From the NCBI GenBank assembly GCA_041661605.1, contig JBAZUE010000001.1, positions 478,928 through 542,927 on the forward strand: a DNA stretch of 64,000 bases, read 5' to 3'. Positions within the stretch are counted from its first letter, which is position 1. Every line of letters begins with the position of its first letter. This document shows, piece after piece, positions 1-15,898 of the stretch. This DNA is from Candidatus Omnitrophota bacterium. GTDB taxonomy: Bacteria > Omnitrophota > Gorgyraeia > Gygaellales > Profunditerraquicolaceae. The notes below the pieces were generated by a model. It searched no databases, was not told the DNA's origin, and worked only from the letters and a program-made list of their open reading frames with translations. Both the position numbers and the translations under genes were made by a program.

Positions 1-357
1 CATAAGAGAAAACCCGCCTTCGCATAGCATAATTGCCAGATCAAATTCACTGTCAAACGGAAGATTGCGGGCATCTTGTGTTTGGAAGTCGATGGTCACC
101 CCTGTCTCTTGCGCCTTTTCCTTTGCCCTTTTGATCTGATTCTCGGAAAGGTCAACGCCGGTCACATTATATCCCCTCTTTGTCAGTTCAATCGCATGAC
201 GGCCGGTACCACAACCGATGTCGATGATCTTTAAGGACTTATCGCGGGCTATCTCCTCTTCGATAAAATTACATTCACCCGCAGTGCCCTGAACAAAACA
301 CTCTTTATCGTATTTGCGCGCGTAATTTTCAAATAATGCTTCGTACCATTGTTTCAT
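1..357 (-). CDS. class I SAM-dependent methyltransferase, partial (3' end beyond window start)
   Basis: Absent from the ORF track because it runs off the edge. Minus-strand ATG at 355-357. Translation reads MKQWYEALFENYARKYDKECF...SLKIIDIGCGTGRHAIELTKRGYNVTGVDLSENQIKRAKEKAQETG...FDLAIMLCEGGFSLM. DIGCGTG is SAM-binding motif I. Confidence 0.7.
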   Translation of the reverse strand, partial: MKQWYEALFENYARKYDKECFVQGTAGECNFIEEEIARDKSLKIIDIGCGTGRHAIELTKRGYNVTGVDLSENQIKRAKEKAQETGVTIDFQTQDARNLPFDSEFDLAIMLCEGGFSLM

Positions 358-573
358 TATTGTCCTCCCATTTACCAAATGTTACTTAAATAGTTCAGGA
401 TAGTCGTATAATACTGCACCCAACGGCCAACCGAACGATCTCAGGAATACCGTTTTATTTTTAACTGTTTTATTTTCCATTGGTTACGTAAACTTACAAG
501 TCTCTACTTTTCATAATTTTGAGTCAAAATGTCTCGCACATCCATCGGCCATGAACTAAGATTAGATTTCTAA

Positions 574-1347
574 CTAATTAATCCCCTTCCAACGACCGGT
601 AATCCAAGGTCCTTGTACTGGACAAACAATCTGACGATAATCAACTTCATATTCTTTATGTTCAAAGTAACCAAAACGATGTATATTCCTCTTAAATACA
701 ATATTTCTCGTTTTCATAAAATCTTTTTCCATTTCACTGAATTGATCGCCAGGATTGTGCTTACCAGTGAAATAAAAATCGGCAAAATCTTCGAGCTCAT
801 CTAAGTGCCAATGAAAACCATTACCACAAAACATAAGAATACAGCGCATCGTATTATCTGTTTTATAAGCAACCAACTTACTCTCGCATTCAAGAGTATA
901 CTGCAACATAGCTGATCTTGCACTTCGCATGTTATGGTATATTTCCCCACCCATCCATTCTTGCTCAAGCTCAATATGCGTGTTGACAGGGAAATACTTT
1001 TGTTCCTTTTGAAATTTCTCCCAAGAATCAACCATATCCGGTTTAATTGTTTTAACATCGCACAATACAGTAGCCCCACCGGATATACTATAGACTAAAT
1101 CAATTGTTTTACTTGATCTAGAGCAATAAGGCTCATATTCAAACGATTCACATGTAAATTTATTGTTATTCAAAATTAAATTTGCCAAAATTACTTCATT
1201 AATTATTTGAGGTCTCTTATCCTTGCGAAATTTATCGAGCAGCTTATCCCGATTAACAAAACGCTTATCTTTTGCCAAAGGCTGACACCACTTTTCTTCG
1301 ATTTTTACCCACAAATCATGCAACTCTTTAGCAACTTTGCCATCCAT
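574..1347 (-). CDS. hypothetical protein (orphan, AT-rich gene)
   Basis: The track ORF is 574..1359 from TTG. ATG at 1347 (MDGKVAKE...) has GAGG 8 nt upstream, so it is preferred. No signal peptide or TM helix and no recognised motif. Visibly more AT-rich than its neighbours. Confidence 0.45.
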   Translation of the reverse strand: MDGKVAKELHDLWVKIEEKWCQPLAKDKRFVNRDKLLDKFRKDKRPQIINEVILANLILNNNKFTCESFEYEPYCSRSSKTIDLVYSISGGATVLCDVKTIKPDMVDSWEKFQKEQKYFPVNTHIELEQEWMGGEIYHNMRSARSAMLQYTLECESKLVAYKTDNTMRCILMFCGNGFHWHLDELEDFADFYFTGKHNPGDQFSEMEKDFMKTRNIVFKRNIHRFGYFEHKEYEVDYRQIVCPVQGPWITGRWKGIN

Positions 1348-1662
1348 ATACAACCTCAATCGAATTCTAAATTCCAGTCTCCCCGGAATATACCATCCTT
1401 ATTTAAACCCACGTTATATAACTCCATCAAGAACGAAACAGCCGTAACGTAGAACTGCATCCATTTGACAACCCAGGGTTTTGATATAAACATTTTTTCC
1501 CTTGCCAAACACTTTTCGATTTTTATTTGTCTCGTTCATAGTTTACATAAAATTGTTAAAACCGATGGATGGCTTCGCCTATTTATTTTGCTTATCCAAT
1601 GCAGCCTTTAATCCTTTCCTACACCCGTGGATGTATTTCTTGTATAACTCTATGTGTAAGAA

Positions 1663-2220
1663 TCAGTTAGATAAACTGTCTACTAAGCTTTCGATTCTTT
1701 CCCCTGCAACATACAAACTTTCGATTACCGCCATGCCATCTTGTATCCTGATAATCGCGTAAGCATCTTCTTTGCCGCTGCGGACGTGCTGCTGGTAAAC
1801 TTTCTCCGCCCGGGGTGCAGCTGACTCTTCCATATAATAGCGGTCAATGGGGATATCCAAATACGCTTTATCTCCGGAAATATAGTTTAACCTTGTTTTG
1901 ATATAAGGCCCTGTATCAGGCCTATTCACAGCCAATCCGGAAAACTTTGCAAATCCATGGTCATCCACGTTTATCAACGCGTAAACCTGCTGACCTGAAT
2001 TCAGCTTATCTTCCTTCGCGCATAAACAATAATCTTCTTCGAAACGCAAAGCAACATATCTGCCCCGAAAGGCATCATAGGGATCAACCGGGGCAACTTT
2101 AAATTTATATTGCGCTCCATGCTTAAGAACAAACTCCCTCCTTGCTATCATGGACAAAGGCGTTATAATTTGCGCAAAGCAGACGCACAGAAACAAACCA
2201 ATAATTAATTTAATCTTCAT
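1663..2220 (-). CDS. GDYXXLXY domain-containing protein
   Basis: 185 aa with an N-terminal signal/anchor (MKIKLIIGLFLCVCFAQ). The C-terminal part has GDKAYLDIPIDRYYMEE, which matches the GDYXXLXY family pattern. Overlaps the upstream DUF2157-like gene by 4 nt, which is the usual pairing. Confidence 0.65.
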   Translation of the reverse strand: MKIKLIIGLFLCVCFAQIITPLSMIARREFVLKHGAQYKFKVAPVDPYDAFRGRYVALRFEEDYCLCAKEDKLNSGQQVYALINVDDHGFAKFSGLAVNRPDTGPYIKTRLNYISGDKAYLDIPIDRYYMEESAAPRAEKVYQQHVRSGKEDAYAIIRIQDGMAVIESLYVAGERIESLVDSLSN

Positions 2221-3527
2221 TTTACACCTCCTAAGCGGCGGGTGTATACCAGGTTAGCCGTTAGAAAACCTATACCTACAATTATAAACACCAGGCCTTT
2301 AACTATAAAACTGATATCGCTGTCAAAGAACCTGGCGATAATCAGTACGGATAACATCAACATCCCGGTATTAAGAAGAGCCTGATTATTAAGGCGGAAT
2401 CCGGCAACTATGCGGCTGAGGCTTAAAACAAATAAATAGAGGTTAAAAATCAATAACGGCAGAAAGGTTGATTGCATATTAAGAAAATAAGCAACTACGG
2501 CCAGCAAAGGAACTGCCCCGAACATTGCAACCTGATTATTCTTACGCTTGAGATTATCGTAGAATAACAATACCGCCGTTCCTATTATTGCCAAGGTTAT
2601 TATGTAATCAGGCAATAAACCAATAAAAGAAATATCCCGGTTAACCCCATAAGTATAGCTGCCCAGATATTGCCAGCAATATTTAAAAGTAAATTGGAAA
2701 ACAAGTATGAACAGGCCTATGCCTCCTATAAAACGTAAAGGTTTTTGCCAATTGGTAGTTATTTGATTGAATTTCCAATTCCCGGTAAAATAAATAACCG
2801 CAAAAATACTCGGGAAAATAACCACCCATAAACCAGGCCAGTTCCTTCCCAGGCTAAAGCTTGCGGCGGATAAAATACACACAGCCATAACCAGTGAAAC
2901 TATCGCGGCACGCAAGGCATAAATCTCCCGCTTTAACGCCCAGATAAGATGAGGAACAATTACAGCTGCCAATGGCCAGAAGATAACCGCCTTCACGGGA
3001 TTATCCCAATTATTCCCAGCCCAGGCAGTTATACCGATCAAGTAAATTACTGCCGGCAAAGATGCCTGCATAATATAAACAAGGGGCAAGATCAGCAACA
3101 TCCAGGTAAAGATAAAAGTTCCGGCATCGCCATGTATATTATATGTCTGGCTGATCAGGGCTATCGCAGCACCAACCATGAGGCTTAAAAAAGTTGCCGT
3201 ACTTTCCTTTAACGCGCTGGATTGAGGCCTTTTAAGCAAAACCCATAATACCAGGAGCTGCCCAATAATTAACGGGGTTAAGGACAGCACCGCCCGGCTC
3301 AGGCGGGACAGCTGATCCCAATTATGCGCGAACAATAAAATTATGCCTAAGCCTATTAAGAAAGCCCCGATAGTGCCAAAAATAACCAACCCCACATTCA
3401 TTCTCCCGGGATTTTTTACTTGTCCATAAAATTGCCGTATTTTATCAGCTGCTTCTTGAGAAAGAACGCCTTTTTCTACTAATCCGGGCAATTCCTGGTA
3501 GAGCCACCTTAGGAATACTTTATTCAT
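2217..3527 (-). CDS. DUF2157-like polytopic membrane protein
   Basis: 436 aa. A soluble N-terminal helix (LYQELPGLVEKGVLSQEAADKIRQFY) is followed by about 12 TM helices. This architecture and the coupling to a GDYXXLXY gene are typical of DUF2157/DUF4401 proteins. Confidence 0.55.
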   Translation of the reverse strand: MNKVFLRWLYQELPGLVEKGVLSQEAADKIRQFYGQVKNPGRMNVGLVIFGTIGAFLIGLGIILLFAHNWDQLSRLSRAVLSLTPLIIGQLLVLWVLLKRPQSSALKESTATFLSLMVGAAIALISQTYNIHGDAGTFIFTWMLLILPLVYIMQASLPAVIYLIGITAWAGNNWDNPVKAVIFWPLAAVIVPHLIWALKREIYALRAAIVSLVMAVCILSAASFSLGRNWPGLWVVIFPSIFAVIYFTGNWKFNQITTNWQKPLRFIGGIGLFILVFQFTFKYCWQYLGSYTYGVNRDISFIGLLPDYIITLAIIGTAVLLFYDNLKRKNNQVAMFGAVPLLAVVAYFLNMQSTFLPLLIFNLYLFVLSLSRIVAGFRLNNQALLNTGMLMLSVLIIARFFDSDISFIVKGLVFIIVGIGFLTANLVYTRRLGGVK

Positions 3528-3600
3528 AGTTCATCCACCCCCTAAAAATTAAACCCCGCACCAAGACGGCGCGGGGTTTAAGATTGGCAAAAAAACTGCA

Positions 3601-4278
3601 TTATTTCTTTTTCAGTTTTTCCACTAATTCAGCTACAAACTTTCCTGCTATATCCTTACAGCCAAGCCCAAAAGCTAAAGCCAGGCCTAAACCAAGCGAA
3701 CCCAAAATAATTCCTATGGTAAGCTCGGTAACACGCATACCGATGTTAAGCTGTTCCAAACCTATAATTACCGCAAAAACCACAACAACGGTTTCTACGA
3801 TTTGCCCTAATAATTTACCCTGGCTAAGCCCGGCATTATTAGCAGCGGTCATCACAATATTCTTCAGCGCCGTAGCGGCAAACATACCGATAATCAAAAT
3901 AAATATACCGGCAATAACATTCGGGATGTAAAGGACAATCTGATTCAATAAATCCGCGGCTACAGTCAGGCCTATGGCATTAATCGCCACCATAAAGGTA
4001 ACTAAAAGACCAAGCCAATAACAGATTACCCCGATTAAATCAGAAAGCGAATAAGTAATCCCGCCTCTGCCAAGGATCTTGTCCAATTCAATGCGGCTGG
4101 AGAGCGCATCAATTTTTATTGTCTTTAAAGCTTTACTTACTACTGCCTTAATTAACTTAGAAATCAACCAGCCAATGATCAAAATAACAATAACCAACAG
4201 CACATTAAGCATAAACTGGCTGATCTGGGTGAGTACATTTCTTGCCGGTTCAAGTAACACGACTTGCCAACTACTCAT
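3601..4278 (-). CDS. small multi-TM membrane protein (conserved-TM-helix / MscS-N-terminal-like)
   Basis: 225 aa with repeated Gly-rich TM helices (IIGWLISKLIK, IAGIFILIIGMFAA, IILGSLGLGLALAFGLG). The family assignment is from memory only. Confidence 0.4.
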   Translation of the reverse strand: MSSWQVVLLEPARNVLTQISQFMLNVLLVIVILIIGWLISKLIKAVVSKALKTIKIDALSSRIELDKILGRGGITYSLSDLIGVICYWLGLLVTFMVAINAIGLTVAADLLNQIVLYIPNVIAGIFILIIGMFAATALKNIVMTAANNAGLSQGKLLGQIVETVVVVFAVIIGLEQLNIGMRVTELTIGIILGSLGLGLALAFGLGCKDIAGKFVAELVEKLKKK

Positions 4279-4469
4279 ATCTGCCTCCTTTTTAATTTAT
4301 GTTTAATAACTTTAACATACTTAAGCGGTTATGTCAAGAATATTCCTTATTCAATACTTCTCGTATAGGCCTAAAGAAAACTTTAGAATTTTTTATAACA
4401 TCAACCGATATTAGCCATAAATATCGTATTATCAATAAGTTAGGTAAATAAATATTTTTTCGCGGCTTA

Positions 4470-4497
4470 TTGAAATTTTCAAATTATGTGTTATACT
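4470..4497 (+). promoter_or_regulatory. sigma70-type promoter for riboswitch 1
   Basis: TTGAAA (4470-4475), 16-nt spacer, TATACT (4492-4497), about 20 nt upstream of the aptamer. Confidence 0.45.
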
Positions 4498-4515
4498 TTT
4501 AATACAATCAGGAAC

Positions 4516-4600
4516 AGCTTTGAAAAAGGCTAACTAGCAGTAATGCTGGGGCGCAAAATGACAGCTCCGAGTTTTCTTGGAGGGCTGCATTGCCAAAGGA
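4516..4600 (+). promoter_or_regulatory. c-di-GMP-I (GEMM-I) riboswitch aptamer
   Basis: Sequence is AAGGCUAAC-UAGCA-GUAA-UGCUG-GGGCGCAAAAUGACAG-CUCCGAG-UUUU-CUUGGAG-GGCUGCAUUGCCAAAGG. It has a first hairpin with a GNRA loop, the conserved CGCAAA junction, a second hairpin, and a GCAUUGCC 3' element. This parallels the V. cholerae Vc2 aptamer (GGCAAACC..GAAA..GGGACGCAAAGCC..CCGG..AGCGGGGUUACCGA). A second copy at 23900-23990 shows compensatory stem changes. Confidence 0.85.
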
Positions 4601-4604
4601 TGAG

Positions 4605-4633
4605 AACCCTAAAATATCCTTTTAGGGTTTTTT
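4605..4633 (+). terminator. intrinsic terminator (riboswitch 1 expression platform)
   Basis: AACCCUAAAA-uauc-CUUUUAGGGUU followed by a U-tract. The aptamer 3' segment AAAGGAU can alternatively pair with AUCCUUU of this hairpin. Confidence 0.75.
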
Positions 4634-4637
4634 ATGG

Positions 4638-4667
4638 CCCCGGCTCAGTCAAGAACCGGGGTTTTTT
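4638..4667 (+). terminator. second tandem intrinsic terminator-like hairpin
   Basis: CCCCGG-cucagucaagaa-CCGGGG followed by UUUUUU, located 8 nt before the SD AAGGAGG of the 98-aa gene. Confidence 0.55.
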
Positions 4668-4687
4668 AATGGGCAAGGAGGTGCAAG

Positions 4688-4984
4688 ATGGGGAAAAAAG
4701 AGATTTTAACGGTTTTATTGGTTCTTTTAATGGCTTCCACTGTTTGGGCTGGTGATAGTGTGACGATCAGTATGTCTTGCACTATTCCTTCTATTCCGGG
4801 AGTGAATGCTCCTGCTCGTATGTCGGAGAGATTAGTCAGTAATCATCAGAGAGAAGATGTAATCAATAACAACGCAGCTGCCACGGTAGATGAAGAAATT
4901 ATAGAAAAGGAGGAGAGAAAAGAAAACCTTCTTGCCCAAGGAGAAAAAGTTACCAGAGAAGTAAGAACAATTTATAGCCGGTAA
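4688..4984 (+). CDS. small secreted protein, riboswitch-controlled (98 aa)
   Basis: SD AAGGAGG upstream of ATG 4688. Signal peptide MGKKEILTVLLVLLMASTVWA|GDS. The mature N-terminus is SVTISMSCTIPSIPG, and the rest is a charged, low-complexity tail. This is the only convincing plus-strand gene in the window. Confidence 0.7.
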   Translation: MGKKEILTVLLVLLMASTVWAGDSVTISMSCTIPSIPGVNAPARMSERLVSNHQREDVINNNAAATVDEEIIEKEERKENLLAQGEKVTREVRTIYSR

Positions 4985-4994
4985 CCCCCTCCTC

Positions 4995-7511
4995 CTATTT
5001 CTGTATTTTACGCAGAGGAATGTTCCAAACAGAAGATTCCCCCTCTTGAAGGGGGAATCTTTTTTTAAGGGCAACTAAAGGCAAATAATAAACAGGGATC
5101 GAGTTTAAGTCCGCGGATAATTCGTGGATTCCAGGCTGCGCCTGAGGATAGATATAGCTGCCATCTATTCCGGTAGTCATTGTTTTATCCCCATCGAGGG
5201 TTATTGTTACTCCAGAAACGCCTTTTTCTCCCGCCGAATATTCACCATCTTCATTTAAATCCTCAAAAACAATACCGCGGATCTCCGAACGCGAGGTAAT
5301 CCCGAAATAAACTTTGGAGCTGGCGGCATTTGCAATAGCAACCCCCTGGGTCACCGGAACGGTAAGCATATAGCCTGCCGGGAGAGTACCGGTATCCAAA
5401 GTTACATAAGCCATCTTACCGTGAACCTTGTCGAATTTAAAATACCCAAGTTCATCAGTAAGCTGGTTCCGTTTCTTGCCCAGCCAAATCTTAATACCAA
5501 AGACCGGAGGCTCATCACGATCCATCAGGCCGTTGGAATTATAATCTTTAAAGACATACCCCTGGATGGTAGAAACCGCGTCCCAACGCAGGCCGGTATC
5601 CCAAAGCAGCTTCATCCCTACGTTAAAACTGGCTTCCACCCTGCTAAGAACCGTAGGATTTTCTTTCCATACATTTCTGATCCTGGCAGAAGCATAAACC
5701 TCCTGTCCATCAGCAGGCCGGTATGAAAGCTCCCCATATCCCTCGATATAATCTTCCCCAGAAAGAAACGATAACGGGGAATTGGCGCGCTCTTCATCGC
5801 GCCAGGCAAAGCGCATTGACCCCCAAAATGGAGACGTACCGATACGGTCATACCAATCAAGCCCGGTTTCCGTAACATTGGGCCGTACGTGGTTACTGGT
5901 AGAGCGTTCAGTAAGCCAATTCAATTCTTTATTAAAATAATAGTATAAGGAGCCGATAACGCTGAAACGCAATCCCGCAAAAAACTTTTCATTAGCATAA
6001 TCCAAAGAATTGGCAGAAAAATTTTTATTATCCTGATGAGAATATTTTGCATAAGTAGAAACCTCTTTACCAAATACCGAGAGCAGCCTGTCCACGCCCA
6101 AGCCGGAAGACTGGTATCTTACCTGCGATAACTTACCCAGGTCATTCTGAAGGGTATAACTGATCTCAAAATTAGTAAACGGATCCATCTTGTAGTCAAG
6201 CGTAGCATCCAAATCTTCGTTAAAACGATTAGGGTTATCTTCCGCCGGATAAAGCCGGTCGCGATATATATCAAAACGCTGAATATAAGTAAGCTTATCC
6301 GTAGGCCTATAGTTTAAGTTTAAGAGGGCGCCAAATTCACCCTGCCGCCATCCAGGACCGGTAAGGCTCACAAACTCCTTATCGATATCCCTGAATTGCA
6401 GGTCCGCATAAAGGTCGGTACCATTATAACGGCTGGTAAATAACTGGGCTAAGTTCTTAGTATCGCTGGCAATTTCATAACTATAACCGTGATTTTTAAA
6501 ATTCCAACCTCCAATCAAATCATAGGCATAATCTTTAAGGAAATCCTGCCGGTCGCGGCCCCAGCCGTGAGCCACGCTAAATTTATAATTTTGCCATACT
6601 TCGGGAGAGAAATTTAAATTAATACCGCTCATAAATGAATGCTGAGCTTTGCTAAAGGTTTCCGTAGCTAATGTCCCGTAACGGCCGCCGTTTTCCCTTC
6701 CCCAAAAATAGGTATAATCAAATTTATTATTGAAAGCAGGCGAATAAAAATAAACGCCCCTTAAATCCGCCCCCGGTATAGCCAGATTATTAAAATAAGG
6801 ATTGTAATCTCCCGCCCGCAGGTTAAATCCTTTAAAATCACCCAGTTTACCATTAGTCAGGCCCGCGCTGACATAGGTCATATCAGTGGAAGTAGAAAGG
6901 GTCCTCTCTGTTATCGCCGCGTCAACTAACCCATAAGGAGTGGCCCCATACATATTTAAATTATGGATCCAAGAGTAAGTTCCGTTACGCCTGACTGTTT
7001 GCAGCCTGCGGCCAGTATAATAAGAATACCAGTCTAAATTATAGCGGAACTTGAAATTACCCATGTTTTCCTCTTCCTTGCGCATTGTTTCTTCCAGGGT
7101 CGGAGAATCAGTGACCGGCATAATACCGGTACATTCAATGCTTGTACGGCCATTATCATCCCAGACGATAATTGAGGCTAAGCCCCTATTCTTAGCCATA
7201 ACAGAAATCTCATTATCATTTAACCTTTCCGCATAGAGGATATCCGGCTGAACAACCAGAAAACGTTTAATATTACTGCCGGTGATAATAACATACTTGC
7301 CTTCTTCAATCTCAATAGGCTGCTGCATAGAAAGCCTGGGGTCATTAAGTAAATAAATTGCCTGGGTTTTTATTTTTGCGTTAGTATCGGATTCGCCTGC
7401 TTCTGTCAACTCCGGGATAAAGATCTGGGAAGGGCTTATTCCCTCTTTTTCGATAGTTTTCTTGACCTTAACCTGGTCAAGGGTATTCTCCATTACTGCC
7501 TGCCTATCCAA
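4995..7511 (-). CDS. large outer-membrane beta-barrel protein, usher-like candidate (N-terminus probably extends to about 7837 across a frameshift)
   Basis: 838 aa from TTG 7511, with no signal peptide in this ORF. IEIEEGKYVIITGSNIKRFLVVQPDILYAERL..ISVMAKNRGLASIIVWDDNG resembles the pilus-formation N-terminal beta-domain of CpaC/RcpA-type secretins. It is followed by about 550 aa of Y/F/W/G/N/D-rich beta-strand pattern. The C-terminus has two Ig-like repeats (GYVFKDYNSNGLMDRDEPPVFGIKIWL; IRGIVFEDLNEDGEYSAGEKGVSGVTITLDGD) like SdrD-B / CarboxypepD_reg domains. Confidence 0.6.
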   Translation of the reverse strand: MDRQAVMENTLDQVKVKKTIEKEGISPSQIFIPELTEAGESDTNAKIKTQAIYLLNDPRLSMQQPIEIEEGKYVIITGSNIKRFLVVQPDILYAERLNDNEISVMAKNRGLASIIVWDDNGRTSIECTGIMPVTDSPTLEETMRKEEENMGNFKFRYNLDWYSYYTGRRLQTVRRNGTYSWIHNLNMYGATPYGLVDAAITERTLSTSTDMTYVSAGLTNGKLGDFKGFNLRAGDYNPYFNNLAIPGADLRGVYFYSPAFNNKFDYTYFWGRENGGRYGTLATETFSKAQHSFMSGINLNFSPEVWQNYKFSVAHGWGRDRQDFLKDYAYDLIGGWNFKNHGYSYEIASDTKNLAQLFTSRYNGTDLYADLQFRDIDKEFVSLTGPGWRQGEFGALLNLNYRPTDKLTYIQRFDIYRDRLYPAEDNPNRFNEDLDATLDYKMDPFTNFEISYTLQNDLGKLSQVRYQSSGLGVDRLLSVFGKEVSTYAKYSHQDNKNFSANSLDYANEKFFAGLRFSVIGSLYYYFNKELNWLTERSTSNHVRPNVTETGLDWYDRIGTSPFWGSMRFAWRDEERANSPLSFLSGEDYIEGYGELSYRPADGQEVYASARIRNVWKENPTVLSRVEASFNVGMKLLWDTGLRWDAVSTIQGYVFKDYNSNGLMDRDEPPVFGIKIWLGKKRNQLTDELGYFKFDKVHGKMAYVTLDTGTLPAGYMLTVPVTQGVAIANAASSKVYFGITSRSEIRGIVFEDLNEDGEYSAGEKGVSGVTITLDGDKTMTTGIDGSYIYPQAQPGIHELSADLNSIPVYYLPLVALKKRFPLQEGESSVWNIPLRKIQK
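5035..5066 (+). terminator. intrinsic terminator of the 98-aa gene, embedded in the 3' end of the convergent gene
   Basis: GAUUCCCCCU-cuuga-AGGGGGAAUC followed by U7 on the plus strand. There is no U-tract on the minus strand. It lies inside codons ...KKRFPLQEGES... of the minus-strand ORF. Confidence 0.65.
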
Positions 7512-7758
7512 TCTGGCAGCAGAAGGATGAGTAGAGACGTTAGGCTTGTGGCTACCGGTATCTTTATTTAATTCTTCGCCGATGAGCCCAAGATAGTAGA
7601 TTGCGGGAGGATAACCGGGTTCAGCAATAAGGGCTCTATTGAATTCATCTTCAGCCTGCTGAAAATTACCTTTTTTCAGATCCTTGATACCTTCTTCACA
7701 GAGGTATCCGGCAATCTGGCTATAAGCAAAAACCGGTTGAGGATTTACGATAATGCAG

Positions 7759-7768
7759 AAAAAAAAAA
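7759..7768 (-). repeat. A10 (T10 on coding strand) homopolymer at a reading-frame junction
   Basis: The run of 10 A sits exactly where the upstream frame (TTG 7837, MFISRRLPKKLSFSLESSFLIFAFFF) and the main frame (..FFCIIVNPQPVFAYSQ..) of the barrel gene would join if one T were added. Confidence 0.9.
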
Positions 7769-7841
7769 TGCAAAAATCAGGAAGGATGATTCCAGGCTAA
7801 AAGAAAGTTTTTTGGGTAATCTCCTAGAGATAAACAAGATT

Positions 7842-8726
7842 TTAATGAAGCTTGCCGACTTGGACAATTTTATTATTCTCTCCTATTGTAACCGAGGCCT
7901 CTTTGGTAATCACAGGCCCCCTGCCCATTCCTGCGTCTGTAAGCGCTTTACCAAGATCAACGGTTATTACCAGATCATAATCTCCGGCAGGGATTTCATC
8001 TTTCCAGACACCCAATAAACTTCCCTTACCGCCCGGGAAAGTATAGACATTATTAAAAGCCCCCCGGGCGCTGACTATCCCGTCGCTATTCATAAGGCTG
8101 AAACTACCAGAAGTAGTTATGTCTGTATTGCCGGTATTTTCAAAATCCAGGGTTATATCCAAACCATCTTTTGCGTCTTTTGAAGGCTGAATATTTAAAT
8201 TGCCTATTTCAGCTCTCCTTGAGACCGTCCCCTTTACTTCGACATAAAATAAAGTAGCCACCCTGACATTAACATCCAGCCCCGCGGAACGGCCGGAGTC
8301 CGCCAGAGAACCTTTCCCTATTGCTGTCTCAAAAAACAAGGTAGCAAAACGCGCTCCGGTAGCATCAGAAGGGATATTGACTGAATAGCTTATCCTTTGT
8401 TTCCCGAATGCCGGCATAGTTACCTCTGCCGGAGAAAAGGTTATCCATGAACAAGCTGAAGCAGGAGTTGAGCCGGCAGGAAGAAACTCCTTGGCCCCTT
8501 CTCCTCCAGGCAAATAATACCAATCCTCAAGATAAAGCCGCATGCTTTTACTTTCATCAGTCGGATTATCAAGCATAATTTCTCCGAATGCACGTTCTCC
8601 GGGAGCTGCCACAACCCTGATTTTTGACTGATTCATAAAAGGCAACTTATCCGCCTGGGCAACAGAAACAAAAAGGCTGCCCATAAGAAATAAACAAGTA
8701 CTTATAAGACGCATTAATGATAACAA
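7842..8726 (-). CDS. periplasmic two-domain Ig-like protein, PapD-like chaperone candidate
   Basis: TTG start with SD AAGGGGG. Signal peptide ..LFVSVAQA|DK. IRVVAAPGERAFGEIMLDNPTDESKSMRLYLEDW resembles the first strands of fimbrial chaperones (RV.y......sl.l.N......l.Q.W). ITFSPAEVTMPAFGKQRISYSV resembles the chaperone l.vtPPlfrl.pg..q..Ri pattern. A second beta-sandwich domain follows at the C-terminus. Confidence 0.4.
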   Translation of the reverse strand: MLSLMRLISTCLFLMGSLFVSVAQADKLPFMNQSKIRVVAAPGERAFGEIMLDNPTDESKSMRLYLEDWYYLPGGEGAKEFLPAGSTPASACSWITFSPAEVTMPAFGKQRISYSVNIPSDATGARFATLFFETAIGKGSLADSGRSAGLDVNVRVATLFYVEVKGTVSRRAEIGNLNIQPSKDAKDGLDITLDFENTGNTDITTSGSFSLMNSDGIVSARGAFNNVYTFPGGKGSLLGVWKDEIPAGDYDLVITVDLGKALTDAGMGRGPVITKEASVTIGENNKIVQVGKLH

Positions 8727-8767
8727 AATACCCCCTTTTGCAATACTTAAGCCTGACTGCTGATTGA

Positions 8768-9349
8768 TTACGGCGTAAGTGTAATGGTGACAGAACCAAT
8801 ATATGTGCCTGCCGGTGTATCCAGGCCGATCGGCGTTACTCCCGTAGCATCTTTACCTGCTTCTCCAGTGCCGATTCCGTAATATATACGCAACCAGCCG
8901 CCGGATAACTGCGTCTTGGTGTAAGCAATATTCTGGCTGTTTCCAAAACTATACTTAGCTAACTCAGTACTGACAGTGCTGCTGGTTTGCTTATTGAAAG
9001 AAACATTGACCTTACCGTTTAAATTATTAGTCGCATCCTTCTGAAGCGACACGCGTGTATGCGTCAAGGTCCAGACAGTGCCGGAATTATCTGTTACCCC
9101 GACATCCACAGCATAATAACTTGCAGGTAAAAATATCTTGTTTATGCTGTCCCAGGTCAAGGTACCAAAACTAATTGTTGAAGCAGTGGTCCAGACAGTG
9201 CCGGTAACTTTACTGACAGTAACAGTTAATCCCCCGGTCATGGTAGGGACAGTGGCATTAACAGTAACAGTCTGGCTTGCCGCAGCCCAGGCGCTTGTCG
9301 TACAAAAAACAGCAGCCACAAGAACCATAGAAATAAATATGTTCTTCAT
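8768..9349 (-). CDS. secreted single-domain fibre subunit candidate (pilin-like)
   Basis: The track ORF extends to 9403. ATG 9349 has SD GGAGGTGA. Signal peptide MKNIFISMVLVAAVFCTTSAWA|AAS. The protein is T/S/G/V-rich and all-beta. The C-terminus PAGTYIGSVTITLTP resembles the terminal strand of SCPU/Csu-type and other fimbrial subunits (aGtY.g..t.tv). Confidence 0.5.
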   Translation of the reverse strand: MKNIFISMVLVAAVFCTTSAWAAASQTVTVNATVPTMTGGLTVTVSKVTGTVWTTASTISFGTLTWDSINKIFLPASYYAVDVGVTDNSGTVWTLTHTRVSLQKDATNNLNGKVNVSFNKQTSSTVSTELAKYSFGNSQNIAYTKTQLSGGWLRIYYGIGTGEAGKDATGVTPIGLDTPAGTYIGSVTITLTP

Positions 9350-9418
9350 TTTTATCACCTCCTTTATTGATTTTTCCATTTTACAATTATTATTCTCAAA
9401 CATCCCGATCCCTCCTCC

Positions 9419-10852
9419 TTAAATTTCGGTTAATGTATAAGTTATCCGCGATGAATAGTTGCCCGCGCCTAAATCAGGCGGGCAAATTAATTCATAGATT
9501 ATTTTAAATTTATCTGCAGAGCCATATGAATCAGAAATAAATAAAAGCTGGCTGCCTTTTTTTACCGGCTCTTTACCAGGAATCCTCAAACTACCTTTAG
9601 TTTTATCCACCGGAAGGGTCTGCAAAGAAAAGTTTTTAGAGGGGATCTTGTCCCCACGGTCATTCACCAATTCCGAAAGGACGTTTTGCGTTACCTGGTA
9701 TGGCCGGCCGAGGTTCGATCTTACTTCAATGAGCACCTCATTTAAACGCGGCCCATCGCTGGGTTTTATATTCACGAAATCAATATTATAACGTTGATCC
9801 TGGGGGGAAATATAAATCTCAAAGATACGCTCCTGCCTGATCTCTAAATCCAGGCCCCCCAAATTTATCTGCTTGCCCGCGGATTCCAGAAGATACTGGA
9901 TACGCGAATGATAATTACCCGCTACCAGGCTTAATGGATCAGCTAAAGAATACGCAATTATAAAAACCTTATCCGCGCTGCCATCAGGCCGCGAAGAATA
10001 TATTGTCTGGATATTGCCTGAAACCGGAACCGGCTGATTTATGGCCACCCCCTTCTGGGCATCAGGGACACTAAAAAGAAGGTTGTTATTGCTGATAAAT
10101 TTTCCCTCCTGGGATTGAACCGACTTTGAGAGCATTTGCATGATCCTAAACGGACCGCTAAAAGAACTGTTAATTGTAACTACCGCCTTGGCTGATCCAC
10201 GAATATCATTAGTATCCGAAGGATTAATTATAATAGAGCCTGCTCCTTCTGCCGGGGCAACAGAAACCGACAAAGAGCCGCCATCATTGGAAATAAACAC
10301 ATATATCTCAATAATTTTGGTTACCGGGAGAGCAGATGAACCGATTGGGTTTAAAACCAAGCTAATCCTTCCGGTATAATATCCAGGAGCCAACTCCTGT
10401 GTATTTTTAATGGCATATACCAAAGTAAATGAATCGGCTGTTCCGGCGGGATTGGAGACATAGATAAGCTCATCATTCCTTACTACGATATCTCCGGGAG
10501 GAATACGTAAATCGCCGAATCTATTCGAACCGCGAAACCCCCTGACTACAAAATTATCCCTTATGGTAACCGAGGGATTGTCACGGTTCCGCAAAGGGCT
10601 TTCAATACGCTGGCGTATCTCATAACGATTATTAACCGTATCATTTGAAGTCGTAAATGTTATCCCGCGCGAAAAATTGTTCCGGTCAAACTCAAGCCGG
10701 CTTCCACCTTGATCAAGTATGAAGTTCAAATCAAATATGGCAAAGGCTTCCTGGCAGAAAATTCCGGAAGCTGCCAACGTAAGAATAAAGATAACTGCCG
10801 CAAATAATTTTTTCATTTTCATTATTGTAACATTTTTTAGCTTAAATTTCAA
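9419..10852 (-). CDS. secreted three-domain fibre/tip subunit candidate
   Basis: Signal peptide ..LAASGIFCQEAFA|IF. Contains three tandem domains of about 140 aa, each ending in G(T/S)AD..(F/V)..(I/V)Y........(A/P)G.Y..RI...L. The three endings are NPAGTADSFTLVYAI..LAPGYYTGRISLVL, RPDGSADKVFIIAYSL..LVAGNYHSRIQYLL and DSYGSADKFKIIYEL..LGAGNYSSRITYTL. The start is uncertain (TTG 10852, ATG 10822 or ATG 10816). Confidence 0.5.
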   Translation of the reverse strand: MKFKLKNVTIMKMKKLFAAVIFILTLAASGIFCQEAFAIFDLNFILDQGGSRLEFDRNNFSRGITFTTSNDTVNNRYEIRQRIESPLRNRDNPSVTIRDNFVVRGFRGSNRFGDLRIPPGDIVVRNDELIYVSNPAGTADSFTLVYAIKNTQELAPGYYTGRISLVLNPIGSSALPVTKIIEIYVFISNDGGSLSVSVAPAEGAGSIIINPSDTNDIRGSAKAVVTINSSFSGPFRIMQMLSKSVQSQEGKFISNNNLLFSVPDAQKGVAINQPVPVSGNIQTIYSSRPDGSADKVFIIAYSLADPLSLVAGNYHSRIQYLLESAGKQINLGGLDLEIRQERIFEIYISPQDQRYNIDFVNIKPSDGPRLNEVLIEVRSNLGRPYQVTQNVLSELVNDRGDKIPSKNFSLQTLPVDKTKGSLRIPGKEPVKKGSQLLFISDSYGSADKFKIIYELICPPDLGAGNYSSRITYTLTEI

Positions 10853-10858
10853 TAAAAC

Positions 10859-10894
10859 AAAAAACCGGACAAACCCATATTAGGTTTTATCCGG
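10859..10894 (-). terminator. intrinsic terminator inside the 5' leader of the fibre operon (attenuator candidate)
   Basis: On the minus strand, CCGGAUAAAACC-uaauau-GGGUUUGUCCGG (11 of 12 pairs) is followed by UUUUUUGUUUU and ends about 7 nt before TTG 10852. Confidence 0.6.
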
Positions 10895-10965
10895 TTAGAT
10901 CACATGGCTCCTTTACTCCTCCAAGCAAAGGATCCCGAATATATTACTTTCACTTGTGTGTTATA

Positions 10966-10994
10966 AATTTAACACTATTTTGGCTATTCGTCAA
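10966..10994 (-). promoter_or_regulatory. sigma70-type promoter candidate for the fibre operon
   Basis: On the minus strand: TTGACG (10994-10989), 17-nt spacer, TAAATT (10971-10966). Confidence 0.4.
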
Positions 10995-11029
10995 GATGAA
11001 TTTTGGGCAAAAAGGAAAGCGCTTTCATA

Positions 11030-11809
11030 TTAGAAATCCAGCTTCATACCGTCATAAGCGGCAATTACCTCTACCCCTAATTCTTTGGATAATTTTTCCG
11101 CCTGCTTTAAGGGATTCGCCTTAAGCATCGTCATACCAAAGTGGGTAAGCACGGCTTTTCCGGGTTTCAGCGTGCTGATAATCATCCCCGCTTCATTCAG
11201 ACTAAGATGGTCAATGCCCTGACGCGGTTCATAAAATACCACCGCGATAATCAGGACATCTGTCTTATAAAAATCGGCTAATTCCGGAAAATACCTGGTG
11301 TCAGAAATCAAACCAACAGTCGTCTTTCCAATTTTAAACTTCAAGCCATAAGTTTCACATGGATGGATATGACGCATAGAAGTAAGAAAACTAAAATCCC
11401 CTACCCGGTAATTATGGTTTGCCTTGATAATCTGTATCTTTTTAGGAAAGTTGGCCGCATGCCTGAGGATAACCGAATCATTACCAACCGCATCAGAGGG
11501 GCAAAAGACTATCCCCCTTTTCTTAAATCCGCCTTCAGTCATTGCCTCAATCATTACGTTTATATCATTGGCATGGTCTAAGTGACGGTGAGTCAAGATA
11601 ATAGCATCCAGCTTTCCCGGATCAAGCCTTGGCCGGCTTGAGGCGCAGCGCACAATGCTTCCCGGACCGGGATCAATCAGGATATTAGTCAGGCCGGAAG
11701 AAACCCACAAGCCTCCGGAAGCGCGCAGCTGCTTAATCATAACAAAACGCGCCCCTGCAGTACCCAGAAATTTAATATAATTTTCTTTCTCCTGCCTTAC
11801 TCCAACCAT
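11030..11809 (-). CDS. MBL-fold metallo-hydrolase
   Basis: THRHLDHANDI (HxHxDH motif), 259 aa. Confidence 0.8.
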   Translation of the reverse strand: MVGVRQEKENYIKFLGTAGARFVMIKQLRASGGLWVSSGLTNILIDPGPGSIVRCASSRPRLDPGKLDAIILTHRHLDHANDINVMIEAMTEGGFKKRGIVFCPSDAVGNDSVILRHAANFPKKIQIIKANHNYRVGDFSFLTSMRHIHPCETYGLKFKIGKTTVGLISDTRYFPELADFYKTDVLIIAVVFYEPRQGIDHLSLNEAGMIISTLKPGKAVLTHFGMTMLKANPLKQAEKLSKELGVEVIAAYDGMKLDF

Positions 11810-12285
11810 TTCTTCTTAAGTTCCGCGTTAATTGCCTGTATTTGAGAATAAGGGATTGTTTTTTCTTCTTTTTCCCGACGCAAGGAATCAAGCGCCCTCC
11901 CGATCTTACTGCCGCAGATAAACTCTTCTACCGGACAAACCCGAGCTTTTAAAAACCTGACAGCCATTTGTACGCCCTTATCATCCGAAACTACAACGAT
12001 ATTTCCGGGATTGCCGGATTCCTCAACCAATCTTTTTATCAACTCATCCGCCTCAATCATGCGCGAAAACAGACAGAGCAGGCCATCCTCTTCAGGAACC
12101 TGCCCCCTGGCAGGAGGATAACCATCAAAAACAAGAATAACCCTGTTCTTGGGGCTTCCGGACAATCTATTTAATTTTATAAATTCTGCAAGTGAATTTT
12201 GGATGTTTGAGTGAACTTTTGCGCCTGGTTTAAACCGGGGATGATTGATTAGGTTGTATGCGTCGATGATGTACTGTAAAGACAT
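11797..12285 (-). CDS. NYN/YacP-like RNA-binding nuclease domain protein
   Basis: ATG 12285 with SD GGAGGGG. MSLQYIIDAYNLINH...RVILVFDGYPP...IVVVSDDKGVQ matches the YacP/Rae1-like NYN pattern. The track ORF starts at 12309. Confidence 0.6.
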   Translation of the reverse strand: MSLQYIIDAYNLINHPRFKPGAKVHSNIQNSLAEFIKLNRLSGSPKNRVILVFDGYPPARGQVPEEDGLLCLFSRMIEADELIKRLVEESGNPGNIVVVSDDKGVQMAVRFLKARVCPVEEFICGSKIGRALDSLRREKEEKTIPYSQIQAINAELKKKWLE

Positions 12286-13216
12286 AAATAACCCCTCCAA
12301 TAGCTGCATAAAAAACCATGGAAGAAAATGATAAAAGAGACATGGCCAGGGCTAATTGTTTTATTACTCCGGCCTTGGCAAAATAAACTACGAATAAGCC
12401 TTCCCTCAACCCCAAGCCTCCTATAGAAATTGGAAGCAATGTAATCGCGCTGATTATCGGCAAGAAAATAAGAAAATAGCTGAACTTTATTTTTACGCCT
12501 AAAGAAAGCCCGATCAAATACACGCTTAGGGGAAAGATTATCTGGATGATAAAAGAAAGAATCAAGTTAGCGATAATTATATTCTTCTGATTACGGAAAA
12601 CGTGGATTTCCCGGTGCATATCCTTAATCATCTCCCTTATCTTTCCTGCGCCAGGCACAGACAAGAATCTGGTTATTCTGGCATATATGAAACTATTGAA
12701 TAGCAACAAAAGGATAACCACCAGCAAAGTTGTGATTATTGCGACAGAAAAGAAAACTATTTTATCGCTTATAATCGTGCCACCCAATACAACAGCAATC
12801 AAGACTATAATCACCAAACCTATATAGCCGCTCAATCTATCCAAAAAAACCGTAGCGATAACCTGCTTGGCTTTCTGGGTATGCGAAACAATGTCCGCCG
12901 TCCTTACCAGGTCTCCTCCAATAGTAGAGGGAAGAAAAATACTAAAAAAAATACCCCCGCAAAAAGAACTGATTAGTTTTTTTAAGGGAGCATTGATCCC
13001 GGCAGCTTTAACCAGCATCTGCCAGCGCCAGAAGCCAAGAACATAACTCAGAGAAAAAATTAAGAAACCCAGGGCTAATAATAATCTGTCCGCGCCCTTT
13101 ATGTCATTTACTAAAACAACAAGATCAATCTTGTTTAGTTTAAACAAGAGTACCAGAAACGCTGCGCTAATAACGATTCTTAATAAAAAGGATAACGCTT
13201 TTTTAAATCCGGACAT
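12230..13216 (-). CDS. flippase-like (UPF0104 / lysyl-PG synthase TM region-like) membrane protein
   Basis: 328 aa with about 8 TM helices. The motif GGDLVRTADI is typical of the family. Confidence 0.6.
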   Translation of the reverse strand: MSGFKKALSFLLRIVISAAFLVLLFKLNKIDLVVLVNDIKGADRLLLALGFLIFSLSYVLGFWRWQMLVKAAGINAPLKKLISSFCGGIFFSIFLPSTIGGDLVRTADIVSHTQKAKQVIATVFLDRLSGYIGLVIIVLIAVVLGGTIISDKIVFFSVAIITTLLVVILLLLFNSFIYARITRFLSVPGAGKIREMIKDMHREIHVFRNQKNIIIANLILSFIIQIIFPLSVYLIGLSLGVKIKFSYFLIFLPIISAITLLPISIGGLGLREGLFVVYFAKAGVIKQLALAMSLLSFSSMVFYAAIGGVIYVFTVHHRRIQPNQSSPV

Positions 13217-13218
13217 TT

Positions 13219-14112
13219 CTATTTAAGTTCCTTAGCGGTTAATTTACGATAGGCTTCCAGGTATTTTTCTGTTGTCCTGGAAATTATTTCTTCAGGCAGC
13301 GTAGGCGCAGGAGCTTCCTTATTCCAATCCAGGGTTTCCAAATAGTCCCGCACAAATTGCTTATCAAAACTCGGCTGGGGCCTGCCTGGCTGGTATTGCT
13401 CAAGCGGCCAGAAGCGCGATGAGTCGGGGGTAAGGACTTCATCAATAATAATCATCCGGTTATTATAAATTCCAAATTCAAACTTTGTATCCGCGATAAT
13501 AATCCCTTTTTGCAGGGCATAATCCCTTGCGTGTTCATAAACTTCTATGCTTGTTTTCTTCAAGTTATCGGCCATATCCCGGCCCAAGAGGCTTTCAACG
13601 TACTTCTGATTTACATTCTCATCATGGCCTGCATCCGCTTTAGTCGAAGGGGTAAATATAACTTCCGGAAGCTTATCTGACTCCCTTAACCCCGCGGGCA
13701 AATTTATTCCGCAAACTGACTGTTTTTGCTTATACTCTTTCCAGCCTGAACCGGAAAGATACCCCCTTACCACGCACTCAACCGGCAGGGGTTTAGTTTT
13801 TAGAACCAACATTGAACGGCCGGCTAAATCATTTTTATATTTCTTCAGCTCAGGCGGATATTTTTCCACATCCGGGGTTACCAAGTGATGCGCGATTATA
13901 TGCTTAATAAAATCAAACCAGAAAACGGATATACGGGTTAAGACCTCACCCTTATACGGTATAGCGCAAGGCAGGACCACATCAAAACAAGATATGCGGT
14001 CGGTAGAAACAATTAAAAGCTTATCCCCCAAATCATAAACATCCCTGACCTTGCCTCTGCGAAAAAGCTTGAGATCACTAAATTCTGTTTTTAACAAAAC
14101 ATTACTTCTCAT
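13219..14112 (-). CDS. purC: phosphoribosylaminoimidazole-succinocarboxamide (SAICAR) synthase
   Basis: [32 protein letters not shown] and [10 protein letters not shown] motifs, 297 aa. Confidence 0.9.
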
Positions 14113-15898
14113 ATTTCTTTAATCTTTCCATCAATGCGTTGTATTCATCCCAAAGCTCTTTTGGCAGGTCCTTTTTAAAATCCCCAAAGAATTTATTTAC
14201 CCCCTTTAATTCATCGAGCCACTCGGTCTTTTCAACCTTAAGCAGCTTCTCCAATGCTTTGTCCGGAAGAGTTAACCCGGTCATATCAATATCAAAAGGA
14301 TACGGCAGATAGCCAATAGGAGTTTCCATGGCATTTACCTTATTATTGCAGCGGTCTATTATCCATTCCAGTATCCTCAAATTATCGCAAAAACCCGGCC
14401 AGAGGAATTTACCGTGCTCATCTGTCTTAAACCAATTAACATGAAATATCTTAGGCGGCTTGGCCATAAGCTTGCCCATATTTAACCAATGTTTAAAATA
14501 ATCCGCCATATTATAGCCGCAAAAAGGCAACATAGCCATGGGATCCCTGCGTACCTGACCCAGCTTGCCTACCTGGGCAGCGGTCAACTCAGAGCCCATA
14601 GTCGCCCCCACAAATACTCCATGCTGCCAGTTAAATGATTGATATACCAGCGGAGCTACATGCTGACGCCTGCCGCCAAAAATTATCGCTGAAATCGGCA
14701 CCCCATGGTGCTGCTCCAACCTAAAGGAAGCCGAAGGGCAATTCACAATAGGAGCGGTAAACCGAGCATTTGCGTGCGCCCCCTTAATTATATTGCCTTG
14801 CGCATCCTTCATATTCGGCTTCCAGGGATTACCCTTCCAATCTATACCCTGATTAGGAATTTCTCCGTCTGCGCCCTCCCACCAAACAGTATTATCCGGT
14901 TTTAGAAGCACATTTGTATAGATAGTATCCTTCTTGATTGTCTCTATCATATTAGGGTTGGACTTAGAATTCGTGCCAGGGGCTACCCCGAAAAATCCTG
15001 TTTCGGGATTGACTGCCCATAGTGAACCGTCTGAATCAACGCGCATCCAGGAAATATCATCGCCTAATGTCCAGATACGGTAACCTTTCTGCTTAAGCCC
15101 TTCCGGAGGCACAGACATCGCCAGGTTTGTCTTACCACAGGCGCTGGGAAAAGCCGCGGCAATATATTCAACATGCCCGTTAGGTTCCTCAATACCCATA
15201 ATCAGCATATGCTCAGCCATCCATTTTTCTTTCCGGGCGACATAGCTGGCAATACGCAAAGAGAGGCATTTTTTACCCAGGAGAACATTTCCTCCATAGC
15301 CTGAACCTACGCTCCAGATGGTATTGTCTTCCGGAAAATGCAAAATCAATCTTTTATTGATATCCAACTGGGCTTTTGAATGCAGACATTTAGTAAAATC
15401 ACCCTCTTTCTCCAAATGATTTAATACGGCTTGGCCGCAGCGGGCCATAATTAACATATTCAACACAACATAACGCGAATCTGTCAATTCCACGCCGATT
15501 TTGCTAAAAGGCGAACCTACCGGCCCCATGGAAAACGGAATTACGTACATGGTCCTTGCCGCCATAGACCCCTTAAATATAGATCTTGCCTTCTGATAAG
15601 CCTTGACCGGAGCCATCCAATTATTATTCGGACCGGCATCATGTTTTTTCTTAGTACAAATAAAAGTTAAATGTTCTGTGCGCGAAACATCATCATGGGC
15701 AGTGCGATGAAGGAAACAACCCGGTAATTTATCCTTATTTAAACGCAGCAATTCTCCCGAAGCAACGCATTCTTTCTCGAGAAATATTTTCTGCTCCTCG
15801 GAGCCGTCAATCCAGACAATGCGCTCAGGGCCGCAGAGTTTAGCCATCTTAACTACCCAATCAGTCAATTTCTTATTAGACGTAGGAAAGCTTTTCAT
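14102..15898 (-). CDS. pckG: phosphoenolpyruvate carboxykinase (GTP)
   Basis: 598 aa. Motifs [19 protein letters not shown] (P-loop) and FGGRR are typical of GTP-PEPCK. Confidence 0.9.

Follow-up and report, generated by a model that had tools for sequence, protein, structure and literature searches.

Ushers, the outer-membrane proteins of chaperone-usher systems, have a barrel of 24 strands. In the class of phase-variable genes that includes Neisseria opa and the Helicobacter pylori outer-membrane protein (OMP) genes, simple repeats lie within the signal-peptide codons. Endosymbionts such as Buchnera and Blochmannia (Blochmannia vafer) reportedly carry genes that are frameshifted at poly(A) tracts and are rescued by polymerase infidelity. 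In many bacterial genomes, selection against A/T runs within coding regions becomes evident at about nine nucleotides, and a run of at least nine A or T is also the threshold for slippage (PMC1088944). Such slippage can be substantial: an 11A run in tssM1 of C. rodentium allows transcriptional slippage that restores the reading frame in about 20-25% of products, and mxiA, mxiE and spa33 of Shigella show 15-30% slippage (PMC4256274). For the Omnitrophota, a survey of the phylum (PMC10066038) discusses Tad and type-4a pili, and a term search of that paper found no mention of ushers or secretins.

The locus described here lies within a stretch of 64,000 nt from a metagenome-assembled genome (MAG) of the Candidatus Omnitrophota, analysed as a whole and referred to below as the window. 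It concerns the last gene of a cluster of four, which encodes a predicted outer-membrane protein whose signal peptide and mature part are found in different reading frames.

Two reading frames meet at a run of ten T

Of the 54 ORFs of at least 100 aa in the window (nt 1-64000), 52 are on the minus strand, and among the 16 1-kb intervals that were profiled (nt 1-16000) 15 have a negative GC skew. The mechanical ORF call for the outer-membrane gene runs on the minus strand from TTG 7511 to a stop at nt 4995-4997 (838 aa), and an exact look-up of its product, with either an L or an M at the start, returned no record. The first-pass annotation had taken TTG 7511 to be the annotated start, which is incorrect, as the NCBI entry (MFA6129856.1) begins at ATG 7493 and has 832 aa. 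The same truncated product is recorded in JGI/IMG, on a contig of 922,655 nt that is presumably the source of the window.

Re-reading of the sequence agrees with the earlier observation that this frame (frame B) stays open for a further 95 codons upstream of TTG 7511, as far as a TAG at nt 7797-7799, and there is no ATG, GTG or TTG in frame anywhere along this extension. That the extension is real coding sequence, specifying a signal-peptide h/c-region and then a TPR, is borne out by the alignment of homologue N-termini, by the family profile and by the structural model.

Frame A, as had been described, can be read from TTG 7837, which lies 4 nt past the TAA (nt 7842-7844) of the preceding 294-aa gene. 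It then translates as MFISRRLPKKLSFSLESSFLIFAFFFSALS before a stop at TAA 7745-7747, four codons past the T run, and its tail is ..SRRLPKKLSFSLESSFLIFAFFFSALS whether TTG 7837 or TTG 7867 is used as the start. The proposed codon and its spacing are correct, but TTG 7867 appears the likelier start, since an AGGAG motif is found 12 nt upstream of it and homologues begin with M/L-FRSASFSNMF at the equivalent position (Table 1). Many homologues have ATG or TTG at this point, overlapping the end of the upstream gene, and the AGGAG motif is kept in the two related loci L001 and L004 (see below). The product of the mini-ORF consists of the n-region and most of the h-region of a signal peptide (…SRRLPKK…SSFLIFAFFF).

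The T10 run at which the two frames meet (A10 on the plus strand) had been located correctly. It is the longest homopolymer and the sole A/T run of at least nine in the 64 kb, the next longest having 8 bases, and it occupies codons 24-27 (counted from 7837) or 34-37 (counted from 7867) of the usher-like protein. The frames are rejoined by the gain of one T or the loss of two bases, and the earlier arithmetic, by which one added T gives a continuous protein of 947 aa, is valid. Only when the frames are joined is a Sec-type signal peptide complete, as judged by eye (..SRRLPKK, then SSFLIFAFFFCIIV, then NPQPVFA), with predicted cleavage between nt 7725 and 7724, that is, between NPQPVFA and YSQ. 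The pattern of a basic n-region, a hydrophobic h-core (10-15 residues) and small residues at -3/-1 is kept across 21 aligned N-termini. The 909-aa mature part has neither a start codon nor an export signal of its own. Both the frames and the N-termini of homologues agree with the original description of an outer-membrane component severed from its signal peptide.

Table 1. Coordinates of the features discussed, numbered from the first letter of the window
Feature	Position (nt)	Strand	Description	Basis
Frame-B open region	4995..7796	-	End of h-region, c-region and 909-aa mature protein	
Frame-A mini-ORF	7745..7867	-	40 codons from TTG 7867, 30 from TTG 7837	
Two extra bases, CT (= TC at 7758-7759)	7757..7758	-		Comparison with nearest intact orthologue, STD1_97
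T10 run	7759..7768	-	Junction of frames A and B	
AGGAG motif	7880..7884	-	Shine-Dalgarno-like; inside 3' end of 294-aa gene	Read from sequence
294-aa secreted protein	7842..8726	-	Two Ig-like beta-sandwich domains	Predicted model and Foldseek
211-aa secreted protein	8768..9403	-	Putative fibre subunit; no family match	
477-aa ORF	9419..10852	-	Secreted, repeated units, no family match; first gene of four-gene cluster	

Comparison with relatives

The joined 947-aa sequence retrieved 127 protein homologues, nearly all of which are intact and 900-970 aa in length; those with a source name are all from Candidatus Omnitrophota MAGs. Their N-termini match frame A first and then frame B (consensus MFRSASFSNMF..GRSPKK..FLVFSLFFSIIxTPxxAFAYSQIAEFLCEEG), and with 127 proteins matching the joined sequence the observation is far beyond chance. 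At the DNA level, 27 relatives recovered from genomes and metagenomes are in frame, with a start codon 28-63 codons upstream of FAYSQ. Two more homologues, annotated without a signal peptide, are also in frame when examined at this level, so that 29 of 29 are continuous and the window carries the only broken copy among the relatives checked. Because each of these relatives has one continuous ORF, the comparison shows the joined protein, a single ORF of ~946-957 aa with a predicted Sec-type signal peptide, to be the ancestral state. The opposite outcome, orthologues that start at the equivalent of nt 7511 with no coding sequence upstream, was not what was found, as the orthologues have a continuous N-terminus.

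Recurrent frameshifting within the family was considered for P0058, P0091 and P0029 (P0078 was left out) and was rejected, as in all three the start has been mis-called and another start, in frame and followed by a signal peptide, lies further upstream. Their public calls begin inside or after the signal peptide (L038, nt 1139-1200; L039, nt 1123-1200; L022, about nt 1450-1636). Locus L039 has an in-frame T9 within its signal-peptide codons.

The closest full-length relative is MAG STD1_209 (locus L001), at 79% nucleotide identity. Gene order there is identical: LPG synthase, NYN, metallo-beta-lactamase, 465 aa, 211 aa, 264 aa, the 960-aa outer-membrane protein and an MS channel. The nearest intact relative is MAG STD1_97 (locus L004), at 92% nucleotide identity. 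A second STD1_97 locus, L003, overlaps L004 by 348 nt within the outer-membrane gene (L003 nt 1-348, L004 nt 5102-5449; JAQUSM010000064 and JAQUSM010000027) at 97.7% identity. As the overlap between these contigs is only 97.7% identical, the STD1_97 bin mixes two strains, the assembly having broken at this point.

At the junction the window reads GCA-T10-CT-GCATTATCGTA, where STD1_97 reads GCA-T10-GCATTATCGTA and translates in frame as AFFFCIIV. Both STD1_209 and the metagenome contig Ga0265297_10027096 (L005) have T10 at the same spot, again in frame (ttt-ttt-ttt-tcc). The run is thus ten T in the three closest intact relatives, and judged from these alignments T10 is the normal in-frame tract length in this clade, the frame being broken by a 2-nt insertion at its 3' edge. 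The earlier placing of the junction at T10 holds in so far as the frames do meet there, but relative to STD1_97 the lesion is a 2-nt insertion (nt 7757-7759), and the length of the tract is unchanged. No other coding indel breaks a frame in the 10.5 kb aligned to STD1_97. A different history is possible, in which an ancestral T11-CTGCA suffered an in-frame loss of 3 nt in STD1_97 and a loss of 1 nt in the window; in that case the lesion would be a change in tract length after all.

Selection on the gene and its neighbours

With STD1_209 as outgroup, the window branch of the outer-membrane gene has 51 synonymous and 24 non-synonymous changes (dN/dS 0.13), and the sister branch leading to STD1_97 has 68 and 29 (dN/dS 0.12; Fisher p = 0.87 between the two branches). 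Along the same branch, the 294-aa, 211-aa and 477-aa genes and the neighbouring beta-lactamase-fold gene show dN/dS of 0.10-0.19. Neutrality is rejected for the window branch (p = 1.5e-17), and the neutral share of the branch is at most about 9%. A long-standing pseudogene is ruled out by these values. The lack of relaxed selection on the window branch implies that the frameshift is very recent, is bypassed, or is not real; an error, or a frameshift that is efficiently bypassed, fits this result equally well as a very recent mutation.

The outer-membrane protein and the four-gene cluster

Pfam detected a T2SS-T3SS_pil_N domain and two SdrD_B domains in the outer-membrane protein, and a TPR at its N-terminus was detected by the family profile. 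In frame B the TPR comes first and is followed by the pil_N domain, a barrel with roughly 26 strands and the two SdrD_B domains. The 909-aa mature protein, modelled with AlphaFold2 (pLDDT 83.8), combines TPR-like helices and a disordered linker with a small beta domain, a barrel of ~26-27 strands and, at its C-terminal end, two beta-sandwiches. When this model was searched against the PDB with Foldseek, the top 12 matches were FimD and PapC (E 9e-20 to 1e-14, about 800 aligned columns), with identities of 10-12% and TM-scores of only 0.3-0.4. Neither Pfam Usher (PF00577) nor PapC_N/C was found at E <= 1, whether in the window protein or among 53 homologues, and the family profile, searched against PDB sequences, matched TPR and SdrD only and no usher. 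As modelled, the protein resembles the FimD/PapC ushers. The name 'fibre pore' that had been given to it is supported at the level of fold by these top matches, but membership of the chaperone-usher family is not established.

The model of the 294-aa protein has a pLDDT of 89, and Foldseek placed WxLIP first among its matches, which also include RbmA, CfaA, FimC, CsuC and Caf1M. The matches to chaperone-usher chaperones (E 1e-9 to 1e-7, target-normalised TM-scores 0.5-0.63) rank below WxLIP. No Pfam domain is recorded for any match of this family, and the matches with a source name are all from the Omnitrophota. Its Ig-like domains and the matches to CfaA, FimC, CsuC and Caf1M uphold the label 'chaperone-like', at fold level only.

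The synteny of the 211-aa gene is kept in L001 and in a further related locus, L036, and comparison of its product with PDB sequences gave nothing meaningful. In the 477-aa ORF (TTG 10852), an indel of 2 nt relative to STD1_97 lies in an A-rich stretch (window nt 10800-10852; about nt 1021 of L004), just upstream of a conserved ATG (MKKLFA..). In view of this indel the ORF probably starts later, and the protein more probably has 465-467 aa, read from the internal ATG; the gene calls for its equivalents give 465 aa (L001) and 467 aa (L036). A Pfam and NCBIfam search of the three proteins encoded upstream of the outer-membrane gene (294, 211 and 477 aa) gave no match. The 211-aa and 477-aa secreted proteins may be fibre subunits.

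The cluster occupies nt 4995-10852 of the window (minus strand), nt 3024-8883 of L001 and nt 300-6127 of L036. Its make-up, a ~465-aa repeat protein, a 211-aa protein, the 294-aa protein with two Ig domains and the ~950-aa outer-membrane protein, is conserved in the Omnitrophota. Annotation of the cluster is limited to 'hypothetical' or 'SdrD B-like', with no family match at the sequence level, and, judged by the models, it resembles a very remote chaperone-usher system. G+C-rich inverted repeats bordered by A/T runs (e.g. AAAAAACCCCGG..CCGGGGCC..AAAAAAC) are found at about nt 4630-4670 and 3545-3585, in the intergenic gaps downstream of the outer-membrane and MS-channel genes, and show small indels relative to STD1_97; these repeats look like terminators.

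Interpretation of the frameshift

On balance, the window probably carries a real, recent and strain-specific frameshift allele of the last gene of the cluster, situated beside a conserved T10 and leaky at best. The extra TC/CT at the 3' edge of T10, within the signal-peptide h-region, breaks the frame, and ribosomes starting from TTG 7867 or 7837 halt at TAA 7745 after 30-40 codons. Most transcripts would then give no exported pore, and the fibre system would be off or strongly reduced in this population. The frames could be rejoined by one additional T/U or by the loss of two, whether the RNA polymerase slips, the ribosome makes a -1 slip on U-UUU-UUU or slippage occurs in replication, and published cases suggest that full-length precursor could still come from a small share of transcripts with U11 or of cells with T11 or T8. 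As the lesion abuts T10, where small slips rejoin the frames, the allele is probably leaky and reversible. The lack of a stimulatory structure, and of conservation in relatives, argues for a strain-specific break rather than a conserved recoding device.

The frameshift is most likely genuine, a judgement based on two assemblies, which may share reads and hence, possibly, a read-level artefact. The Logan assembly of SRR18595301 includes a 7510-nt contig that corresponds to nt 3768..11121 of the window and is 99.986% identical to it over 7354 nt, with a single mismatch (nt 4067), no gaps and the same T10-CT; an identical sequence in a separate assembly makes an assembler artefact unlikely. A sequencing or assembly error would mean that the true gene is intact (T11-CTGCA or T10-GCA) and that the consensus is wrong at the longest homopolymer of the region. 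Such an error would account for a break at the only homopolymer of at least nine in 64 kb, for the normal purifying selection seen in the gene as well as in its three partners, and for the lack of a second defect within the gene. It is nevertheless unlikely, given that the Logan contig was built independently, that the difference from STD1_97 includes a C and so is no simple length miscount, and that no frame error is present in any eight-base run or in the 10.5 kb of coding sequence that was aligned. Repair to T11, arithmetically sound as had been noted, would also insert a residue found in none of the 20 aligned homologues. The plain homopolymer miscount offered as one of three earlier readings has lost ground for similar reasons: intact relatives have the same T10, the window has the extra TC/CT, and the second assembly is identical. 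An error-riddled long-read assembly was rejected, as neither the 10.5 kb alignment nor the ORF tiling shows another coding frame error; coding sequence makes up 91% of the window, which is tiled by 54 ORFs, and no further gene is obviously broken. None of four repaired proteins (TC deleted or T11, start at 7837 or 7867) was present in a collection of 15 billion proteins, a weak test in that whole-protein identity was required. A metagenome search for tract variants of the same species, with the pattern CCTGATTTTTGCA-N8-18-ATTATCGTAAATCC, gave 0 matches, and a literature search on SRR18595301 found no paper.

If the frameshift is real, the T tract might have a function. The earlier suggestion of phase variation would make it an evolved switch, with the 5' tract toggling the pore by slipped-strand mispairing and the window caught in the off phase. 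The architecture is the classic one, in that a long homopolymer falls among the signal-peptide codons of a gene for an outer-membrane or fibre component; four lineages keep the T10 as the sole long run per locus, no other A/T run of at least nine being present in these loci, and such runs are expected to be hypermutable (PMC1088944). Yet the window, the Logan contig, STD1_97, STD1_209 and Ga0265297_10027096 all have exactly T10, no variation in tract length was seen among these four lineages and two assemblies, the off state differs by the TC insertion instead of by tract length, and every other relative checked is in frame. The idea that the tract itself is selected for was rejected as unproven: where F-F-F-S/C is conserved and TTT usage is 75%, T10 arises by default. 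An evolved switch is accordingly judged improbable. Functional recoding, in which useful expression is obtained through U10 to U11 slippage or a -1 ribosomal shift on U-UUU-UUU and the split is tolerated or exploited as in tssM1, appears rather unlikely, even though T10 reaches the length of at least nine A or T at a frame junction that transcriptional slippage calls for (as in T. thermophilus dnaX), and runs of 9-11 nt slip with 15-30% efficiency in enterobacteria (PMC1088944, PMC4256274). The heptamer U-UUU-UUU, which fits the slippery form X XXY YYZ of dnaX- or IS3-type sites, is present in frame A at the junction (within gca-ttt-ttt-ttt-tct), the 0-frame stop follows four codons past the run, there is no relaxation of selection on the gene or its partners, and the tssM1 precedent is lineage-specific too (PMC4256274). 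This reading is weakened by the relatives, as the two-frame layout occurs in 0 of 29 orthologues at the DNA level and the protein homologues are intact (900-970 aa). Moreover, the same slippage would cost intact relatives with T10 some of their product, a hint that the tract is incidental. Predicted folds of nt 7660-7758 (99 nt) and nt 7700-7800 (101 nt) are no better than those of shuffled sequences (z -1.26 and -0.41), and no Shine-Dalgarno-like (GGAGG-like) stimulator occurs within 20 nt upstream of T10. The programmed slippage proposed at the outset therefore finds no support in the relatives or in the downstream structure, and nothing in the sequence indicates an evolved recoding signal. 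It is very doubtful that the clade-conserved T10 acts as a slippage dial, in transcription and/or replication, that sets or switches the pore level of an undescribed chaperone-usher-like system confined to the Omnitrophota; on that reading, the window would represent a slippage-dependent state.

As regards annotation, MFA6129856.1 (832 aa) represents a truncated product called from a gene with a frameshift; the record ought to be flagged accordingly and should not be taken as a cytoplasmic 'SdrD B-like' protein. The strain probably makes little or no pore for a conserved, Omnitrophota-specific surface-fibre cluster, though the gene and its partners seem to be under selection. Should reads or RNA show heterogeneity of the tract, this would be a rare case of homopolymer-based switching, or of rescue by slippage, in an ultra-small environmental bacterium that is uncultured. 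The cluster itself is the more lasting lead, with its usher-like barrel and chaperone-like protein and no sequence-level link to known chaperone-usher systems.

Comparison with described systems

As modelled, the outer-membrane protein has in common with FimD and PapC a beta domain towards the N-terminus, a large barrel and a pair of beta-sandwiches at the C-terminus. It differs from them in its additional N-terminal TPR, in C-terminal domains of the SdrD_B type, and in having about 26-27 predicted strands, compared with 24, with no plug-sized insert evident in the AlphaFold2 model. The 294-aa protein, as modelled, is similar to the PapD-like chaperones in its two Ig-like domains and its matches to CfaA, FimC, CsuC and Caf1M, but its best match is WxLIP and not a member of the PapD family.

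As in Neisseria opa and the H. pylori OMP genes, a repeat tract is located in the 5' signal-peptide codons of a gene for a surface structure, and loss of frame uncouples the export signal. Unlike those genes, the tract shows no length polymorphism in four lineages or two assemblies, and the host is an environmental member of the Omnitrophota rather than a host-adapted pathogen. The frameshifted genes of Buchnera and Blochmannia are similar in that a non-programmed indel lies at or beside a long A/T run in a gene that otherwise seems to be under selection; there, however, such tracts are many, while the window has a single run of at least nine in 64 kb.

The nearest parallels for the break itself are tssM1 of C. 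rodentium and mxiE, mxiA and spa33 of Shigella, where a gene for an envelope machine is likewise split at an A/T run of 9-11 nt, with a stop soon after, and the full-length protein requires one extra nucleotide in the run. The tssM1 case is, like that of the window, specific to one lineage (PMC4256274). In those genes both slippage and the functional need for it have been proven by experiment, whereas the window is known from its sequence alone. The break in the window falls within the signal peptide, and the resulting peptide of 30-40 aa cannot be a second functional isoform. The lesion also differs: it consists of two inserted nucleotides next to a tract that relatives carry in frame.
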